Of a stretch of 34,442 nucleotides of DNA, positions 3,094 through 17,347 are shown piece by piece (position 1 is the stretch's first letter; each line of letters opens with the position of its first letter). This DNA is from a virus: the UHGV virus genome UHGV-0123328; one strand, given 5' to 3'. Under the pieces are notes generated by a model, which had not been told where the DNA came from, made no database searches, and saw only the letters and a list, made by a program, of their open reading frames with translations. The position numbers and the translations under genes were made by a program.

Positions 3094-3229
3094 GTGTAAT
3101 TAGCTTAATCAATCAGTTGATAATGGCGGTCACAATTTGATTCTTTTCTATAAGAATCCGTTGATCGCCACTACTCTTCTTCCATACCTGCAATCATACC
3201 CTTAAATATCAATAGGTTACTGTTGTTTA

Positions 3230-3990
3230 AGCCAATAAGAAAACAACTAAATAACAGATCAACGAAACATCAACGCTTTCACCCGATTTGGTCTAAAAAA
3301 TTGACGTTTTCACACATCACTGCTTATACCCGTAATTCTACACAGCAGACAGCGCCACAGCGTCCAATTTTCACCACAGACGACCCAACACACTACCAAC
3401 AAAAACACACGCTCAAAATCGCTCCCGTTGCGTTACACAACCATATAAACAACTTATTTTCAGGTATAACAAAACAACTAAATAACACATATGCCATTCC
3501 CCATAACAACCAACCTCTTTATGGCAGGCTACCGAAAAGACCCACCTCTTCTTCTCAGGCTATCGGACAACCAACCTAACTTTCACAGGCAATCCGAAAA
3601 CATTCATACGCGCAATACCCACGACACGCCATTACCCAAACAGCGAAGAAACACCAGAATCACTGAAACCCCAACGAAGCCTGTAACCGCAAGGTTTCTC
3701 TCAATCCCAAAAGACACGAAACATAACAATCACGGGAAACGCCATTACCCAATACACGAATAACTACAAAAGCCCTTCACGCACTCCAGACAAACAACTC
3801 AAACACAATAACGAAAGCAATCGCCCACCTGCCATTACTCCATACACGGAGAAGAACAATCACCAAAACGACGAGAACACCCCATAGAAGAACCACCGCA
3901 AAACGAACGAAACCACATACACCGACAGAGAGAACAACACGCCCAATTCACCAACAGAAATAGTCGCCGTATAGAACGTTCTGGAAGGGG
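3230..3990 (+). other. A+C-rich, G-depleted non-coding tract with three copies of a GCCATTAC(C/T)C-N-ATACACG motif
   Basis: Extreme strand compositional skew visible by eye. Motif copies at about 3626-3641, 3738-3758 and 3829-3849. Only low-complexity ORFs on the plus strand and none of 60 aa or more on the minus strand. Confidence 0.6.
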
Positions 3991-4174
3991 GTGAGCATTA
4001 ACGCCTATAGAGAGGTTGAGACAGATAAAACACGAAGAAAACACAACATGTATAGCGAAGAAGCAAGGTATGTATAAGTGGGGAGGGAAGGAGGGGTGTC
4101 GCCTCCTTTTTCGTATTTATTCAACTCCTGATTTTATCCCCCGTAACACCCCTACGGTCAGCCTTCGGTCCATA

Positions 4175-4309
4175 CAGGGAAAAGGCTGCATCCCGCTACA
4201 GAAACGGCTGGGTTGCCTTCGGGGAACGGCTGGGGATTTTCAGGGAAACGGTCGAGTTGCCTGTGTGGATTTCGGGAAAAGGCTCGATGCCGGTTCAGGA
4301 ACGGCGGCG
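4175..4309 (+). repeat. Iteron-like direct repeat array 1 (six copies of C(A/G)GGRAAMRGC at 21-32 bp spacing)
   Basis: Copies start at 4175, 4199, 4220, 4241, 4273 and 4296: cagggaaaaggctg, cagaaacggctgg, cggggaacggctgg, cagggaaacggtcg, cgggaaaaggctcg, caggaacggcggcg. Confidence 0.7.
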
Positions 4310-4622
4310 TACCGGTATAGCGAGAGGGAGAGTTGCGGCTACCCACCTGTAATGTGCGGGAAGAAGAGAGGCGCTCACGTGCAGGCGAACTTACTTACCG
4401 CTGGATTCCCTCTGAATGCCCAGCTACAGCGTAATTGTGCCAGACAGCCAACGGGTCACAATCGATTTCAGTAGGTTTTCGGGGAGATGATTATTCTGCC
4501 CACCAGCCACCTTCGGCCACTAAATCAGAATAATGTAAAAAGTGTACTCGGTACTGAACCTGAAAACTCACTGCCAAAACCACATTCACCGGAATAAAAT
4601 CCTTTTTCGCCTGTGCGTTATT

Positions 4623-4660
4623 GCGATAATAACACCAACGAGAAAACAAGTTGTTTAAGG
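4623..4660 (+). promoter_or_regulatory. Conserved promoter/operator-like module, copy 1 (GCGATAAT…AGAAAACAAGTTGTTTAAGG; palindrome 4644-4656)
   Basis: Nearly identical to the copies at 6760-6796 and 7245-7284. Palindrome AAACA-agt-TGTTT ends 12 nt before ATG 4669. Confidence 0.6.
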
Positions 4661-5007: not shown

Positions 5008-5034
5008 AAGCCAGCATTGCTGGCTTAATTTCTC
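5008..5034 (+). terminator. Stem-loop / putative terminator (AAGCCAGC-att-GCTGGCTT followed by a T-rich run)
   Basis: 8-bp perfect stem and T-rich tail, 10 nt after the stop at 4998. Confidence 0.5.
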
Positions 5035-5151
5035 TATAGCCGCAGGGAAGAACCTGCATATCGCTCATGCACCTGATCAATATGCTTTGTAGCCGTTTTC
5101 TTACTGGTATTATTTACGCCATTGAGAAAACAAGTTGTTTACGGAGTTGTG

Positions 5152-5463
5152 ATGAAAAAATCATTGGTTCTTGGTCTGGACAAAGACCAGAAGAGAAAAG
5201 AGAAGCCTGCACTGGTTGCTCAATTAACTTTGCTAGACATCGTTGCCAATGGAACCTCTATTCGTCTGTTCCGTGAAACAGCGGTGTCTTTCGATAAAAA
5301 CACCTTTACTCGTTATGTAATGAATGTTCGTCGCCAGCGTGGAAAAGGCTGGATGGCATTTCAAAGAATGTGGCCGGAACATCAGCTCGAACTGGCTTTG
5401 ATGGAAGTTAACCGCGTGGCCCAGCAAGAAATTCAGAGAGCATCAGTGATGGCAATAGCCTGA
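5152..5463 (+). CDS. Hypothetical small basic protein (103 aa; ORF track start 5122)
   Basis: ACGGAG Shine-Dalgarno 5 nt upstream of ATG 5152; AAACA-agt-TGTTT palindrome at 5128-5140; terminator downstream. Confidence 0.6.
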   Translation: MKKSLVLGLDKDQKRKEKPALVAQLTLLDIVANGTSIRLFRETAVSFDKNTFTRYVMNVRRQRGKGWMAFQRMWPEHQLELALMEVNRVAQQEIQRASVMAIA

Positions 5464-5497
5464 TAATGTGCAAGTGGTAATTAGTCGACAGTACGAC

Positions 5498-5527
5498 AGC
5501 CCCGCCATCCTTACGGGGCTTTTTTGT
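5498..5527 (+). terminator. Rho-independent terminator
   Basis: AGCCCCG-ccatcctta-CGGGGCT followed by TTTTTTG. Confidence 0.7.
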
Positions 5528-5589
5528 ATTGTAAGTACATACTTACGATCATAGAATAGAAAAATAACCAATACACTACGGAGAGTGAA

Positions 5590-5985
5590 ATGACCGTTAA
5601 ACGCGAAAAACTGACAGTTGATGTTTACTATGCCTCTGAAACCGCCGAAGGTAAGAATGTGGCAAAAATCACCGTTGTTACGTACAACACCGAAACTGGT
5701 GCCGAAGTCCAGGCCAGTACGATCGTGCGTAAAGGTGATGCCTCCGGCGGCGAGTACGCGACTCAATACCAGTCTATTTTCGATGCAACTGACCCGCTGC
5801 TGCTGAAAATCGAGAACTACTTCCGCCAGGTTGATGAAGAGGTGTTTGAACCAATGATGAATATGGTTAACACCGTATTCGCCTCCAACCTGAATACCAA
5901 CACTACCTGGATTGGTCAGTACGGCCTGCGCATTACCTCTGGCATTCCTGCCGACACCTTAATCCCTGAAAGCGTATTCGCTTAA
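5590..5985 (+). CDS. Hypothetical protein (131 aa)
   Basis: ORF with GGAG Shine-Dalgarno; preceded by the GTAAGTA-ca-TACTTAC palindrome (5531-5546); hairpin plus T-run downstream (5994-6024). Confidence 0.6.
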   Translation: MTVKREKLTVDVYYASETAEGKNVAKITVVTYNTETGAEVQASTIVRKGDASGGEYATQYQSIFDATDPLLLKIENYFRQVDEEVFEPMMNMVNTVFASNLNTNTTWIGQYGLRITSGIPADTLIPESVFA

Positions 5986-5993
5986 TCCTCTTT

Positions 5994-6024
5994 AAATGGC
6001 GCGCAAACCGCGCCATTTTATTAT
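5994..6024 (+). terminator. Rho-independent terminator
   Basis: AAATGGCGCG-caaac-CGCGCCATTT followed by TATTAT. Confidence 0.65.
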
Positions 6025-6102
6025 GCCCGATAACAATTTGTTTTCTGCCTTATCTGATTTGTGAAAATGATTTCACTGAAGCAACTTAATAAGGAAACCA
6101 TC

Positions 6103-6477
6103 ATGGGACTTGATATCTATATCGAGACACAGCCTAAAAACGATCTGAATAACGAGGCATCCAGAAAGCAGGTTGCTTACTTCCGTAAGTTCAATGCGCT
6201 CGTTGGGTGGATGGAGCGCAACGTAGGTGAAGTCGAAAATTGTGAGCTTTTAGAATTAACGATGAATGACATTTGTTTTCTGAAGGCTCATTTGATGCAC
6301 ATAAACGAAAGTAATTGCGAAGAGTACTTGCCTACCCGGGAAGGTTTTTTCTTCGGCAGTCAGGAGTACGATGAAGGTTACTGGCATGATGTGGGGCAGT
6401 TGAAAGAGCTTGTGGAAGATCTGATTAAGAACCACGACTTTCACAATAACAGACTGACCTTCTGCGCCTGGTGGTAA
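6103..6477 (+). CDS. Hypothetical protein (124 aa from ATG 6103; ORF track starts at GTG 6061, alternative ATG 6067)
   Basis: Strong TAAGGAAACC Shine-Dalgarno before ATG 6103; AACA-att-TGTTT palindrome at 6031-6043 upstream. Confidence 0.55.
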   Translation: MGLDIYIETQPKNDLNNEASRKQVAYFRKFNALVGWMERNVGEVENCELLELTMNDICFLKAHLMHINESNCEEYLPTREGFFFGSQEYDEGYWHDVGQLKELVEDLIKNHDFHNNRLTFCAWW

Positions 6478-6479
6478 AT

Positions 6480-6623
6480 ATGGGCGATTTCAAGAAACGC
6501 CTGAAGGAAAGAGCCGAGATGGTCAGAAAGCAAAACGCCTCTTCTGTCATCAGATACGCAAGGCAGTTTAGTCGCAACAACAAATCAGTTGAGGAAAAGA
6601 TCCTTAGCGTAATCGGGCGATAA
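6480..6623 (+). CDS. Possible small basic protein (47 aa), translationally coupled to the preceding gene
   Basis: ATG 6480 lies 2 nt after the upstream stop; Lys/Arg-rich ORF ending immediately before stem-loop 6627-6654. Not in the ORF track because it is under 60 aa. Confidence 0.3.
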   Translation: MGDFKKRLKERAEMVRKQNASSVIRYARQFSRNNKSVEEKILSVIGR

Positions 6624-6626
6624 TTA

Positions 6627-6654
6627 TTAAGACCACCAGCATTGGTGGTCTTAA
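6627..6654 (+). terminator. Stem-loop TTAAGACCACCA-gcat-TGGTGGTCTTAA (putative terminator or RNA processing/stability element)
   Basis: 12-bp perfect stem. A covarying twin occurs at 7098-7125. Confidence 0.5.
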
Positions 6655-6759
6655 ATGACTTTTAATAACCGAAGGTTAGTTTGAAACCTGGCTATCAACT
6701 TCCAGAACCTTTCTTGTGTATTCAGCCTGTATTAACTTCTTTTATGCCTTATCTACACT

Positions 6760-6796
6760 GCGATAATTACACCAACAAGAAAACAACATGTTTACG
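6760..6796 (+). promoter_or_regulatory. Conserved promoter/operator-like module, copy 2 (palindrome AAACA-aca-TGTTT at 6781-6793)
   Basis: GCGATAATTACACCAACAAGAAAACAACATGTTTACG; near-identical to copies at 4623-4660 and 7245-7284. Confidence 0.6.
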
Positions 6797-6812
6797 CAGT
6801 GAGGATATGCTC

Positions 6813-7094
6813 ATGACTGATTTCACCATTACCCCTAAAGCACAAAATGTATTTCTTGAATCATGGCTGGACTTGCCGGAAACAGAACAGCAAGAAATGG
6901 ATCATGTGGATTATGACGAGCAGGTAAGCACGCGATTCTTCCACTTTGAGGGCTGCGTTTACGACATTGCCGACTTCATGCGAGATGACCGCTTCCCTGA
7001 ATGGCACGCCAGTTATCCACTAAACGCCTTCGCCATGCTGATGATCCGTGTGGGTGATTCAGGGGATACCATCGACATCGGTCTGCTCCACTAA
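6813..7094 (+). CDS. Hypothetical small acidic protein (93 aa; ORF track start 6681)
   Basis: GAGGA Shine-Dalgarno 7 nt upstream of ATG 6813; conserved module upstream; stem-loop downstream. Confidence 0.55.
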   Translation: MTDFTITPKAQNVFLESWLDLPETEQQEMDHVDYDEQVSTRFFHFEGCVYDIADFMRDDRFPEWHASYPLNAFAMLMIRVGDSGDTIDIGLLH

Positions 7095-7097
7095 AGA

Positions 7098-7125
7098 TTA
7101 AGGCCACCAATGCTGGTGGCCTTAA
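7098..7125 (+). terminator. Stem-loop TTAAGGCCACCA-atgc-TGGTGGCCTTAA
   Basis: 12-bp perfect stem, compensatory to the 6627-6654 copy (A:T pair replaced by G:C). Confidence 0.5.
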
Positions 7126-7244
7126 ATGACCATCCTGTTTCCCGCAGGCTAAAAACACCAACCTCTTACCTCCAGGCAACCGACAAACCCACCTGTTCCC
7201 GTCCGGCTACCGCAACTTTCCACTTTGACGCCTTATTCGTACAA

Positions 7245-7284
7245 CGATAATTAACGCCAACAAGAAAACAATTTGTTATTTACG
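7245..7284 (+). promoter_or_regulatory. Conserved promoter/operator-like module, copy 3 (palindrome 7266-7278)
   Basis: ACGATAATTAACGCCAACAAGAAAACAATTTGTTATTTACG upstream of ATG 7299. Confidence 0.6.
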
Positions 7285-7298
7285 ATAAGGAATTAATC

Positions 7299-7781
7299 AT
7301 GAATTTTATCGCTACTGTAAACGCACCCGCACATGGCAATATCGCTGTAACGTTCTCTGACATTGAAAAACGAGTACTTGGTGCCTGGCGTCACAATGAG
7401 ACGGTAGAACTGTCAGAACAAGAAAAATGCATTATTGCACGCGACATCATTGGCAATCGTCGTTACTCGCGGGTATTTGAGAAAGCATATGTGGTAAATT
7501 CTGGGTTCGGAACGTTCGTCTTTCCGGTGCGCTCAGGGCGATTCTGCCAGTCCAAGCTGATTGAGTTCGCTACGCAGATTTCTGTCTGGATTAAAACTCA
7601 ATCGTCGTTCAAATTTTCCGACGATGAAGCAGTATCGCAGGGGATGCGGATCGCCAACAATGCGATTAAATGCAAAAACATTACGTATACCGCTGGCGTT
7701 GATACATGGAAACTGTTTTGCGCTAACTTTATGCTGAATGTATACGCAAGCAACCGCATCCACATCCTTGATGGCGTGTAA
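7299..7781 (+). CDS. Hypothetical protein (160 aa)
   Basis: TAAGGA Shine-Dalgarno 7 nt upstream; conserved module upstream; terminator 7790-7813 downstream. Confidence 0.65.
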   Translation: MNFIATVNAPAHGNIAVTFSDIEKRVLGAWRHNETVELSEQEKCIIARDIIGNRRYSRVFEKAYVVNSGFGTFVFPVRSGRFCQSKLIEFATQISVWIKTQSSFKFSDDEAVSQGMRIANNAIKCKNITYTAGVDTWKLFCANFMLNVYASNRIHILDGV

Positions 7782-7789
7782 CTGAGAAG

Positions 7790-7813
7790 AGGGCCAGAAA
7801 CGGCCCTTTCTCT
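7790..7813 (+). terminator. Rho-independent terminator
   Basis: AGGGCC-agaaac-GGCCCT followed by TTCTCT. Confidence 0.6.
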
Positions 7814-8335: not shown

Positions 8336-8401
8336 GCGCCATCATTGGCGCGTTATGGTGGGAGTATTGGAAACGAAAAAAGCGCCCACAGTGGGCGCTC
8401 G
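8336..8401. terminator. Pair of GC-rich hairpins (GCGCCA-tcat-TGGCGC and AGCGCCCA-ca-TGGGCGCT) flanked by A and T runs; likely bidirectional terminators
   Basis: Perfect stems with AAAAAA 5' and, for the second, TTTTATTT 3'. Same family as the hairpin at 8653-8669. Confidence 0.55.
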
Positions 8402-8404
8402 ATT

Positions 8405-8635
8405 TTATTTATGTAAACTGATTTCAAATCCCATTTCTACAAACGCTTTTAACATTAAAAATATATCAGCGTCATTCACGTCTGCTTTTTTTCGCTCCTG
8501 GTCGCTCAATAAGTCAATTTTGCGCGTCGTTTCATCGATAAACTCGACTGCGCGCCCAGCGTAACCAGCGATCCCAGCGATGCGATTAACAAAATATTCA
8601 TTGCGCACGTTAACGCCAGCGATAAGAATAAACAT
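8405..8635 (-). CDS. Hypothetical small protein (76 aa)
   Basis: AAGGAG Shine-Dalgarno 6 nt upstream of the ATG; bracketed by GC-rich hairpins. Confidence 0.5.
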   Translation of the reverse strand: MFILIAGVNVRNEYFVNRIAGIAGYAGRAVEFIDETTRKIDLLSDQERKKADVNDADIFLMLKAFVEMGFEISLHK

Positions 8636-8682
8636 GATTAAGCTCCTTAAAAGCGCCCATAGTGGGCGCCAGATTCCATTAA

Positions 8683-9333
8683 TTACGCTTTGAAAGCATC
8701 AGCCAGATAGTTATAGAAATCATTTTTAATAAAGCGATATTGCTGAGTGCCAGCTTTGGCGCTCCCAGCTCCTTTGACTTTTTCAACAAGTCCCAGACGT
8801 TCGCAAAGATTGATAAGCTGGTTGGCTTGAGTGTATCCTGCGTCTAATTTTATTTCGTTGGCTTTTTTCGCTTCATTCATTAAATCGAAAACAGCGCCAT
8901 TTGTGAACGTCTCGATCTCGTCGTTAATCATATCGATTAATGCGAATACACGAGATCCGGACATATCAGCGACGGAATAAACACACTTTCCAGCTTTAAT
9001 GGATTTAACCAGATAAACCAGTTTTTCCAGAGAATAACTGTTAGTCATTGCATCACGGAAAAAAACTTCTGGCGCTTGTTTGCTTGCTTTGATCGCATAG
9101 TAGAAAACAGAGCATAATTTTTCGTCTTCTACAGCGTTTACAACGTTGTTGATGAAGTAAGCAAGTTTAGTGGTCGCAGCTTGCATATTTGCTTTGTCTG
9201 CTTTAGTGTGCGTACCATTTTTATAATGTTCGTTATATGTTTGAGTTGCCAGATCTGCTTTTTCGCGCAGTTCATCGGATACAATGGAAGCAGCTTCAAT
9301 GATGGATTTTTTAGAAATGATAATGTTAGTCAT
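8683..9333 (-). CDS. Hypothetical protein (216 aa), AT-rich moron-like gene
   Basis: Clean ORF of about 40% GC with its own upstream intergenic region (9334-9570); hairpin 8653-8669 immediately downstream. Confidence 0.6.
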   Translation of the reverse strand: MTNIIISKKSIIEAASIVSDELREKADLATQTYNEHYKNGTHTKADKANMQAATTKLAYFINNVVNAVEDEKLCSVFYYAIKASKQAPEVFFRDAMTNSYSLEKLVYLVKSIKAGKCVYSVADMSGSRVFALIDMINDEIETFTNGAVFDLMNEAKKANEIKLDAGYTQANQLINLCERLGLVEKVKGAGSAKAGTQQYRFIKNDFYNYLADAFKA

Positions 9334-17230: not shown

Positions 17231-17347
17231 CTTAGTAAGACATGCCCAGACCTAATTAAACACCCCAGAAAACAAGTTGGTTAGCAGATGCAGTAAACAA
17301 GTTGTTTTAGAGCGCATGGACGCGCTCTGTGTGTTTTAGAGGGATCT

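Follow-up and report, generated by a model that had tools for sequence, protein, structure and literature searches.

The window, meaning the whole stretch of 34,442 nucleotides analysed here, is part of an SSU5/pHCM2/pMT1-type phage-plasmid and has 98% identity to Escherichia phage Cyrano. Two hairpins, HP1 and HP2, sit in the variable accessory-gene region of this element, in an array of small genes without assigned function. Every array gene comes with a promoter-like and leader motif of its own and ends in some stem-loop just past its stop codon (Table 1). The start codon of g8 was inferred from the Klebsiella ortholog, whose start is ATGACTGATTTC. Pfam and PHROG searches with the nine flanking genes returned families without known function throughout, and g7 matched no Pfam or PHROG family; the gene content therefore gives no clue to the role of the hairpins. 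In a sigma-70 and terminator scan, used for orientation only, promoter-like matches were not enriched (27, against 32.6 expected) and terminator-like matches were mildly enriched (30, against 19.5 expected). The Cyrano genes encode RecA/UvsX-, UvsY-, gp32-, UvsW-, SbcCD- and RuvC-like proteins, and the Cyrano integrase gene is about 55 kb from the hairpin locus. The locus was found in 238 of the 5,426 complete E. coli genomes, and none of its 243 places in these genomes was chromosomal.

Table 1. Genes, stem-loops and predicted signals around HP1 and HP2 (positions are those of the window).
Feature	Position	Strand	Description
Stem-loop after g3	5008..5026	+	8 bp, loop ATT; AAGCCAGC-att-GCTGGCTT; z -3.0
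Canonical intrinsic terminator after g4	5499..5525	+	GCCCCG...CGGGGC then T6; score +19.5; contrast case
Canonical intrinsic terminator after g5	5994..6022	+	AAATGGCGCG...CGCGCCATTTTAT; score +13.2; contrast case
g7	6480..6623	+	47-aa ORF; E. coli clade only
HP1	6627..6654	+	Perfect 12-bp stem, loop GCAT; TTAAGACCACCA-gcat-TGGTGGTCTTAA; about 3-4 nt past the g7 stop codon
ATGAC extension of the repeat unit, HP1 side	6655..6659	+	Directly 3' of HP1
g8 cassette	6655..7125	+	471 bp: spacer, promoter and leader, g8, HP2; present/absent unit among near-identical phage-plasmids
g8 predicted promoter -10 and conserved leader	6762..6798	+	GATAAT 6762-6767; palindrome AAAACAACATGTTT 6780-6793; repeat families D1, D3, D4 and motif search
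g8	6813..7094	+	93-aa gene, PHROG 1845 (family without assigned function), conserved throughout the SSU5 family
HP2	7098..7125	+	Perfect 12-bp stem, loop ATGC; TTAAGGCCACCA-atgc-TGGTGGCCTTAA; 4 nt past the g8 stop codon
ATGAC extension of the repeat unit, HP2 side	7126..7130	+	Directly 3' of HP2
Untranslated C-rich, G-poor tract	7126..7225	+	41% C, 13% G; three 30-nt repeats 7129-7216; candidate Rho loading region
g9 predicted promoter and conserved leader	7225..7283	+	TTGACG 7225-7230, 15-nt spacer, GATAAT 7246-7251; palindrome 7265-7279
g9	7299..7781	+	160-aa gene, PHROG 1641 (family without assigned function); constant right neighbour of the cassette site

HP1 and HP2 are the longest perfect hairpins of the window. 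By our own arithmetic, about 0.01 perfect stems of at least 12 bp with a loop of 3-8 nt would be expected by chance (34442 x 6 x 4^-12). The predicted RNA folds have energies of -18.0 kcal/mol for HP1 (z -4.27) and -20.1 kcal/mol for HP2 (z -4.68), and in both cases none of 200 shuffles was as good. The two stems differ at the sixth pair only, which is A:T in HP1 and G:C in HP2. In all these points, namely the hairpins, their coordinates, the paired difference and the ATGAC that follows both copies, the locus is exactly as an earlier note on this DNA had described it; the note had missed that the two loops are mutual reverse complements. The sequence TTAAATGAC follows the stem at HP1, at HP2 and in two further cassettes with hairpins, where the sequences further downstream are otherwise unrelated. 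The ATG of ATGAC starts frames of 8-9 codons in the E. coli clade. A mini-ORF after the hairpin was considered and rejected because there is no Shine-Dalgarno sequence and the Klebsiella variants have no ATG.

Several searches were made for similar sequences. The half-site pattern was enriched (15 matches, against 4.4 expected), with HP1 and HP2 as the only true matches. A search of the whole window with the Rfam 15 covariance models (E <= 1) gave no match to any curated RNA family. When the 51-nt hairpin was compared with phages by BLAST, only chance matches of 21-23 nt inside coding genes were obtained past four close relatives. The IMG/VR pattern scan, which used AAGNCCACCANNNNTGGTGGNCTT, also matched nine unrelated phage terminators (AAAAGCCCACCA...TGGTGGGCTTTT), and these were excluded as generic.

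About 100 related loci gave 38 distinct hairpin variants, which formed the set for covariation analysis. In these variants, 86.8% of the cells are paired, and 7 of the 12 pairs are altered on both sides. The covariation score was 0.263, compared with 0.191 in shuffles (0 of 500 reached the observed value) and at most 0.145 when the partners were slid out of register. RNAalifold independently found a 9-pair stem with double changes in five pairs. Further covarying copies in relatives, from which the earlier note had proposed to build a covariance model, were thus obtained. The hairpin orthologous to HP2 follows g8 in all lineages examined (32-33 unique variants); it is present in SSU5, pMT1 and pHCM2, and in elements of Enterobacter, Citrobacter, Cronobacter, Klebsiella, Kluyvera and Buttiauxella. 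From genus to genus, the hairpin keeps its place at the gene end, although the sequence of the outer stem changes. The GGCCACC/GGTGGCC core (7-8 bp, GC) is almost invariant, and sequence-specific recognition, beyond structure, could be the cause.

The HP1 orthologs comprise eleven variants. At the sixth pair, 18 loci have G·T and two have G:C, and this window alone has A:T. As read from these sequences, the G·T pair of most relatives is the state that connects G:C to A:T. Since the HP1/HP2 difference is one step from this common intermediate, the single covarying pair is weak evidence by itself, and hairpin-templated (quasipalindrome) correction could have produced the paired difference without selection. 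The earlier note had argued from that pair to selection on the structure. The argument is supported by the conservation and covariation of the 38 variants, and is weak for the pair in the window taken alone.

The stem-loop after g3, which is conserved at this place in relatives, had been presented as a shorter relative of HP1 and HP2. It was rejected as a member of the HP family, since the covariance model gave 11.9 bits (E 0.36), the same score as for an unrelated stem-loop at 7786-7811, after the next gene past HP2. Judged by its sequence, it is a separate generic gene-end stem-loop with no specific relationship to the HP hairpins. In the 108-kb Cyrano genome, the covariance model found three copies, two of them strong and one weak.

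HP1 and HP2 might be ordinary Rho-independent terminators that stop the host RNA polymerase after g7 and g8, a possibility that we consider rather unlikely. As in intrinsic terminators, the GC-rich hairpin lies a few nucleotides past the stop codon and before the next promoter, and a simple scan lists both hairpins as terminator-like. True U-tract copies also exist in relatives: the related hairpin GAGGCCACC-agcac-GGTGGCTTTTGT, found after another gene, has a U-tract. The SSU5 variant hairpin is followed by TCTTTTAT. Moreover, the promoter-early stem-loops (PeSLs) of T4-type phages gave efficient termination when assayed with a reporter (PMC2839356). However, of the features of an intrinsic terminator, HP1 and HP2 have the stable GC-rich stem-loop at the unit end and not the 3' U-rich tract. 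The tail UUAAAUGAC contains only 2-3 U, and the T-tract term is 1.9-2.0, compared with 3.9-4.9 in the neighbouring terminators. On a terminator score that is our own re-implementation with modern energy parameters, HP1 and HP2 are negative (-20.7 and -12.2), whereas the two canonical terminators two genes upstream are positive (+19.5 and +13.2). The absence of the U-tract after HP-type hairpins is conserved in most lineages. Because the U-tract is missing, the hairpin should be no efficient intrinsic terminator, and the first of the three roles suggested by the earlier note, a classical terminator, is unlikely.

A protective or attenuating 3'-end stem-loop, like those on Rho-dependent E. coli transcripts, appears to be the most likely role of HP1 and HP2. 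The Rho-dependent transcripts carry protective stem-loops at their 3' ends, which have no U-tract and are followed by an excess of C over G (Dar & Sorek 2018, PMC6061677). HP1 and HP2 are likewise stable gene-end hairpins with no U-tract and no requirement for an upstream A-tract. The excess of C over G just downstream is shared by HP2 (C 41%, G 13%) but not by HP1, which has no C-rich tract. The tract after HP2 has 40-44% C and 13-18% G in the E. coli, Yersinia and Klebsiella lineages; its 30-nt repeats were seen by a separate repeat search only and were not reported by Tandem Repeats Finder. The sequence after HP1 is T-rich (T about 39-40%, C about 21-22%, G 14%), so the proposed involvement of Rho agrees with HP2 but not with HP1. 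The stem-loops of PMC6061677 are not described as repeated or recombinogenic, whereas the HP hairpins are repeated and located at cassette junctions.

The mismatches of the variants bear on whether the structure acts as RNA. Read on the coding strand, the imperfect pairs are G·U in 38 cells and A·C in 5 cells; as the 38 variants are phylogenetically related, these counts are estimated to represent about 12 independent G·U events and about 2 A·C events. The plus strand gives the better fold for 23 variants and the minus strand for eight. This mismatch spectrum points to an RNA structure on the sense strand, and strand-asymmetric mutation could be an added source of the bias. Together with the conserved and covarying stem, the spectrum provides comparative support for an RNA 3'-end or stability element, the second role suggested in the earlier note.

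The palindromes also undergo DNA-level events, because in-place hairpin flips are documented among relatives. At locus L062, the Klebsiella-type hairpin is found in reverse-complement form, with six positions changing together, and loops occur as the reverse-complement pairs GCAT/ATGC and CTGC/GCAG. The flipped variant, read on the coding strand, shows A·C mismatches, and another variant (L023/L052) has one G·G mismatch in the stem; the stem therefore tolerates some damage. Such flips are in favour of a reading in which the hairpins have no RNA function and are DNA palindromes kept by templated correction, gene conversion and flips, as passengers of the cassettes. The hairpin copies recombine among themselves, and the A:T pair of the window is exactly what the common G·T variant would become on templated correction. 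However, correction and conversion of this kind act alike on both strands and cannot account for the excess of G·U over A·C on the coding strand. The gene-end position is kept across genera despite the changing outer stem, and some stem-loop ends every array gene. The absence of any RNA function is therefore considered improbable.

The hairpins are also the places where gene content changes. HP1 and HP2 are spaced 471 nucleotides apart, start to start. PhiR41_1 and several IMG/VR contigs have a single hybrid hairpin, with the left flank of HP1 and the right flank of HP2. The full 841-bp query is carried by 99 E. coli plasmids and many others span 370 bp (841 minus 471); among the 238 E. coli plasmids, the deletion and full forms are about equally frequent. 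Elsewhere, this site has taken up a 1.1-kb gene cassette or another gene, and each of the two carries a hairpin copy of its own at its end; in SSU5, the hairpin is directly adjoined by a gene in convergent orientation. Gene identities form a mosaic along the loci, and gene content differs between relatives. Comparison of these loci shows that the repeat unit of about 35 bp (stem-loop plus AAATGAC) is the junction of cassette deletion, insertion and replacement. The crossover interval differs between deletion forms, being the left arm in L002/L005, the right arm in L003 and the 3' flank in L031. The varying crossover points indicate a homology-driven exchange with no fixed site. A recombination site, the third role suggested in the earlier note, thus gains comparative support, although not at a constant crossover point. 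Two of its three roles are supported in this way, because the structure covaries, the mismatches point to RNA and the hairpins are junctions.

The unit might go beyond incidental homology and be a dedicated cassette-exchange site of SSU5-type phage-plasmids. In this case, the unit would extrude as a DNA hairpin, perhaps while the DNA is replicated, and the SbcCD, RuvC and UvsX machinery encoded by the element would act on it, which would actively stimulate cassette capture, loss and inversion at this single locus. This view is very doubtful; if true, the site would be a counterpart of the integron for promoter-bearing cassettes, guided by homology and structure.

In a further and highly improbable reading, the palindrome is a duplex or cruciform DNA site, for binding of a dimeric protein or for attC-like site-specific recombination. 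The nearly invariant GGCCACC/GGTGGCC core, the bounding of cassettes by the hairpin site, and the integrase and SbcCD-like nuclease encoded elsewhere on the element are consistent with this. Integron attC sites are also imperfect palindromes that end each mobile gene cassette at its 3' side. However, a DNA site would not be expected to show the G·U bias seen on the sense strand, there are just two strong copies per whole 108-kb genome, and, unlike integron cassettes, the cassettes here have their own predicted promoters. No attC core sites (RYYYAAC...GTTRRRY) were found in the hairpin sequence, and there is no adjacent IntI. The integron-like reading was rejected because the core sites are absent, the integrase gene lies about 55 kb off in Cyrano, and three different crossover intervals were found (L002/L005, L003 and L031). 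Sites for RNase III or another endonuclease, separating the cistrons of a read-through transcript in the style of T7 early mRNA, are considered extremely improbable: perfect 12-bp sense-strand duplexes do lie between the cistrons, but typical RNase III substrates are longer than 12 bp, the downstream genes all carry promoter motifs of their own, and there was no Rfam match.

REP elements are post-gene imperfect palindromes without a U-tract, which can stabilise the upstream mRNA and promote rearrangements. HP1 and HP2 differ from them in having no resemblance to the REP consensus, no copy on a chromosome (0 of 243 places) and a copy number of two; no RAYT transposase was seen near the hairpins. 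The closest analogue of the SSU5-type hairpin cassettes is the T4-type PeSL cassette (Arbiol et al. 2010, PMC2839356; Comeau et al. 2014, PMC4122927). There, small genes without assigned function in hyperplastic regions are flanked by a stem-loop repeat and a sigma-70-type promoter (PMC2839356, PMC4122927). T4-type myovirus genomes have about 50 copies per genome, which form five subclasses of one compact motif (PMC2839356). In both systems, the hairpin motif delimits the indels and replacements that distinguish close relatives (here the 471-bp indel and the inserted cassettes), the exchange is put down to homologous recombination on a short repeat, and the stems contain G-T pairs. The variable region is beside genes without assigned function in both, on an element with T4-like recombination genes. 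The differences are that the host here is a siphovirus-type phage-plasmid and not a T4-like myovirus, that there are two or three strong copies per genome and not about 50, and that the predicted promoters share a palindromic operator-like leader. Furthermore, the stem-loop and the predicted promoter, both repeated, are 100-170 nt apart, whereas they are fused in one compact motif in the PeSL.

Taken together, HP1 and HP2 are probably, at roughly 0.6, two copies of one gene-end RNA stem-loop family that doubles as cassette junctions. In the mRNA, the hairpin would mark the 3' end of the upstream cistron, shield it from 3'-5' exonucleases, and attenuate read-through toward the next unit. At HP2, the release of the polymerase would probably be Rho-dependent, in the adjoining C-rich untranslated tract, and the RNA would then be trimmed back to the hairpin. 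In the DNA, the hairpin unit would be the sole sequence common to otherwise unrelated cassettes and may serve as a short homology for recombination, by the host RecA or by the UvsX/UvsY/gp32/UvsW-type genes of the element; the array would therefore be modular. The in-place flips may be by-products of the palindromic DNA of the hairpin.

Phage-plasmids of the SSU5/pHCM2/pMT1 type are common in clinical Enterobacteriaceae. The gain and loss of hairpin-bounded cassettes is already described for T4-like phages; the present results extend the PeSL principle to another phage class, with no new mechanism. The stem also offers a clean natural case of the path from G:C through G·U to A:U. The results may be helpful for annotation of cassette boundaries, 3' UTR elements and over-called gene starts in public records. 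The variable accessory region consists of self-contained units of predicted promoter, gene and stem-loop, and the short conserved stem-loop unit as the swap point provides a testable rule for the gain and loss of small genes.

The region shares 98% identity with Escherichia phage Cyrano, whose genome is 108 kb, and further matches were found in the E. coli phage-plasmids CMS-2020a and PhiR41_1. The two 12-bp perfect stem-loops under study, HP1 and HP2, follow the small genes g7 and g8, respectively. A tblastn search with g8 (93 aa, 6813-7094), which lies between them, hit 758 PLSDB plasmids, mostly at ~78-100% identity (103 below 60%). The hits were from Escherichia, Klebsiella, Enterobacter, Citrobacter, Cronobacter, Salmonella, and Yersinia, and the plasmids include pHCM2 and Y. 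pestis pMT1, and phage SSU5 itself was matched in the phage collection. Thus, the window belongs to an SSU5-type phage-plasmid. The genes g1-g9 all fall in phage protein families of unknown function. The window starts inside a phage-plasmid-borne methionyl-tRNA synthetase gene (21-1271), which is annotated as MetRS in Cyrano and PhiR41_1. The public g8 start (CYRAN_110 in Cyrano, window 6744-7094) is an upstream ATG within the promoter/leader, giving 116 aa, and several PLSDB records label the 93-aa protein 'ABC transporter'; considering the ortholog starts and the lack of a family match, both look like annotation errors. The locus also occurs in L039 (JAEWTL010000044.1), labelled 'MAG: Bacillota bacterium', with most genes at 94-98% protein identity. 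The locus is that of an enterobacterial phage-plasmid, and the label most likely stems from a binning error or contamination.

The earlier note had located HP1, HP2, and a third hairpin (5008-5026), and re-reading of the sequence found all three positions exact. ATGAC directly follows both HP1 and HP2, and the stems differ only at the sixth pair (A:T vs G:C), as that note had reported; their loops, which it did not mention, are mutual reverse complements. Both hairpins start 4 nt past the respective stop codons. They are the two longest perfect hairpins within the 34-kb window, where chance alone would give about 0.01 such stems (our own arithmetic). Their predicted folding gave z-scores of -4.3 (HP1) and -4.7 (HP2), and none of 200 shuffles folded as well. 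Folding also confirmed the 8-bp hairpin at 5008-5026, which follows g3 (z -3.0), but its proposed place as a shorter relative was not upheld, since it scored at noise level with the covariance model built from 38 variants.

Hairpins, gene-end stem-loops, and palindrome copies in the window. The discriminant is of the d'Aubenton-Carafa type and was computed by us.
Feature	Location	Position	Sequence	Discriminant
HP1, stem-loop without T-tract	after g7	6627-6654	TTAAGACCACCA-gcat-TGGTGGTCTTAA	-20.7
HP2, stem-loop without T-tract	after g8	7098-7125	TTAAGGCCACCA-atgc-TGGTGGCCTTAA	-12.2
Stem-loop without T-tract	after g3			-11.8
Stem-loop without T-tract	after g9			-2.7
Textbook intrinsic terminator with T-tract	after g4	5499-5525		+19.5
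Textbook intrinsic terminator with T-tract	after g5	5994-6022		+13.2
Palindrome		1355-1369	AAAACAANNTGTTT	
Palindrome		1406-1419	AAAACAANNTGTTT	
Palindrome		3447-3460	AAAACAANNTGTTT	
Palindrome		4643-4657	AAAACAANNTGTTT	
Palindrome		5127-5141	AAAACAANNTGTTT	
Palindrome		6030-6044	AAAACAANNTGTTT	
Palindrome		6780-6793	AAAACAANNTGTTT	
Palindrome		7265-7279	AAAACAANNTGTTT	
Palindrome		17269-17282	AAAACAANNTGTTT	
Palindrome		17294-17308	AAAACAANNTGTTT	

About 100 related loci were gathered, and the sequence 3' of the g8 and g7 stop codons was extracted. Every lineage has a hairpin after g8, and 32-33 distinct versions of it occur. The core GGCCACC/GGTGGCC is nearly invariant; the outer stem is lineage-specific yet still paired, with TTAAGG/CCTTAA in E. 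coli vs GGAGGG/CTCTC(A) or GAGAG/CTCTT in Klebsiella and Cronobacter. The covariation alignment comprised 38 distinct variants located downstream of g7, g8, and three further genes; standard pairs make up 86.8% of its cells, and both-sided changes occur at 7 of the 12 stem pairs. The covariation score was 0.263, compared with 0.191 in shuffles (0 of 500 reached 0.263) and at most 0.145 with the partners slid. RNAalifold, supplied with no structure, recovered the same stem with 9 pairs. In L056, a more distant relative, the HP1 ortholog carries two additional double changes and a bulge. Across the loci, the sixth pair of HP1 is G·T in 18, G:C in 2, and A:T in this window only; therefore, the A:T/G:C difference traces to the path G:C to G·U to A:U.

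Several variants represent the hairpin inverted in place. The hairpin centre of locus L062, CCACCAGCATCGGTGG, matches the reverse complement of the Klebsiella-type CCACCGATGCTGGTGG exactly, an inversion that converts a G·U closing pair to A·C, and the loop pairs GCAT/ATGC and CTGC/GCAG were found on identical flanks. These flips and reversed loops show that the palindromes undergo template-switch or conversion events at the DNA level. Such events could make 'compensatory' changes without selection, which is the main caveat on an argument from a single pair. The compensatory-change argument of the earlier note is supported for the stem as it covaries across the 38 variants, but its single pair taken alone is open to a template-switch or conversion origin.

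Selection on a sense-strand RNA structure is best evidenced by the strand bias of the imperfect pairs. Within the ten inner pairs, 38 cells are G·T (coding-strand G·U) vs 5 that are A·C (other-strand G·U), and four of these five belong to two bulged variants and a single flipped hairpin. As a rough estimate, not counted on a tree, this represents ~12 independent G·U events vs ~2 A·C events. The coding strand folds better in 23 of 32 variants, and the other strand in 8. A protein site on the duplex, or mutation alone acting on a palindrome, should be strand-symmetric, and the bias was read as RNA selection for that reason. Transcription-linked mutational asymmetry could contribute to the G·U excess.

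The suggestion of a recombination site gained comparative support, in that the hairpins are cassette junctions. PhiR41_1, CMS-2020a, and several IMG/VR contigs lack exactly the 471-bp unit that separates HP1 from HP2, and have a single hairpin whose left flank is that of HP1 and whose right flank is that of HP2. The locus is present in 238 of 5,426 complete E. coli genomes, always plasmid-borne, and the 841-bp query is present in full in 99. Of 30 hits sampled at even spacing, 13 were full length, 13 spanned 370 bp (841 minus 471), three lacked the g7/HP1 side, and one covered just the final 23% of the query. The wider family has g8 throughout, so the single-hairpin form is a deletion between the two hairpin copies. 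The crossover lies 3' of the variable right-arm base in L031, between the loop and this base in L003, and in or before the loop in L002/L005; thus, exchange occurs at varying points within the homology, with no fixed site. At the same site, L018 and L057 carry a 1.1-kb gene with its own promoter and its own terminal hairpin copy (ACAAGGCCATCA-gcat-TGGTGGCCTTAA), and L102 carries a different gene ending in AGGCCACCAG-ttaacg-CTGGTGGCCT. In SSU5 and some Klebsiella elements, convergent genes are inserted directly 3' of the stem. L078 is a mosaic, in which g3, g4, and g9 are 97-99% identical to the window, and g5 and g8 share 36% and 79%. Together with L079 and L101 (all IMG/VR; g3, g4, and g9 at 96-99%, Klebsiella-type g5 at 36% and g8 at 79%), it indicates that alleles have been swapped, the breakpoints lying in the intergenic modules. 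Cyrano encodes RecA/UvsX-, UvsY-, gp32-, UvsW-, SbcCD-, and RuvC-like proteins, so efficient short-homology recombination in the element is plausible. The g7 start is ATGGGCGATTTCA (6480-6500) vs ATGACTGATTTCA (6813-6833) for g8, and in Klebsiella elements (L032, 5376-5400) g8 comes immediately after g6, across the TAAatATG junction seen here at g7; hence the block made up of g7, HP1, and promoter seems to have entered the first codons of g8 by recombination on very short homology.

A stem-loop occurs within a few nt of the stop codon at the end of every array gene, and most genes are preceded by a conserved promoter/leader motif, a GATAAT-type -10 followed by ..CCAACAAGAAAACAAGTTGTTTA.. (repeat families D1, D3, and D4). 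Therefore, the array is a chain of self-contained units, made up of a putative promoter, a leader, an ORF, and a stem-loop. With both strands counted, there are 16 copies of the palindrome AAAACAANNTGTTT, compared with 0.47 expected. The copies are either in the leader, just 3' of the GATAAT -10, or a short way 5' of the -35. The palindrome fronts g1, g3, g4, g6, g8, and g9 as well as a gene near 17.3 kb, and looks like a shared operator or 5'-UTR element co-regulating the cassette genes. Three tandem 30-nt C-rich repeats (consensus about ACCAACCTCTTnnnnnCAGGCTACCGAAAA) are found at both 3509-3599 and 7129-7216. The latter set, directly 3' of HP2 and upstream of the g9 promoter, is kept in pMT1, pHCM2, and Klebsiella elements; these could be rut-like RNA or protein-binding repeats. 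The ~1.5 kb at 3100-4650 has no convincing gene (two doubtful-looking hypothetical ORFs are annotated in Cyrano). Its plus strand is C-rich and G-poor (27% C and 19% G overall, with long stretches at 33-40% C and 8-14% G), and contains the internal repeats D6, D7, D15, and D16; a non-coding RNA or a plasmid site acting in cis could lie here. Another hairpin family with two copies, AAAAGCGCCCA-c/tag-TGGGCGCT, occurs at 8378-8412 and 8649-8683 (271 bp apart), and in the Klebsiella phage-plasmid L032 at 6917 and 7164 (247 bp apart). These hairpins look like bidirectional terminators.

An intrinsic terminator is unlikely for HP1 and HP2, as the tail UUAAAUGAC is a poor U-tract; the absence of a U-tract is conserved. 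TCTTTTAT follows the stem only in variants with an abutting convergent gene (SSU5 and L040). In SSU5 (L033, 4280-4314), the convergent repressor-like SSU5_116 sits directly 3' of the hairpin, two stop codons 29 nt apart flank it, and TCTTTTAT follows the stem, in the arrangement of a shared bidirectional terminator. The untranslated tract 3' of HP2 (100 nt) is 41% C and 13% G, and E. coli, Yersinia, and Klebsiella lineages all keep this composition (C 40-44%, G 13-18%). In E. coli, Rho-dependent transcripts have their steady-state 3' ends at a stable stem-loop that lacks a U-tract and is followed by C-over-G sequence; the stem shields these ends against PNPase and RNase II (PMC6061677). Because the U-less stem and the C-over-G tract match this configuration, it is proposed that the hairpins would define and protect mRNA 3' ends, and may attenuate the mRNA there, with Rho possibly acting 3' of HP2. 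HP1 is followed by T-rich rather than C-rich sequence, so the Rho step lacks support at HP1.

The search for further copies in relatives that the earlier note called for yielded many variants, but within Cyrano and the window the covariance model gave strong hits to HP1 and HP2 only. One weaker copy (22.9 bits), TAAAGGCCA-taagttg-TGGCCTTAAAT, is followed by the promoter motif and lies between Eaa- and Eae-like genes; a related copy with a true U-tract follows another gene in relatives. The hairpins do not qualify as integron attC sites by the criteria for these, they are not in Rfam, and a limited literature search found no paper on them in SSU5-type elements. The closest described system is PeSL of T4-type phages, in which repeated promoter and stem-loop motifs flank ORFans in hyperplastic regions and mediate modular shuffling through homologous recombination (PMC2839356, PMC4122927). 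HP1 and HP2 work like PeSLs but are not members; the host is a phage-plasmid, the gap between stem-loop and promoter is 100-170 nt, and the copies are few. As an RNA element, they fit the U-less protective stem-loops of Rho-dependent transcripts (PMC6061677). HP1 and HP2 are real and conserved features of an ordinary kind. From the loci compared, their evolutionary role as a cassette boundary is clear, and we infer that they would also have a role at mRNA 3' ends.
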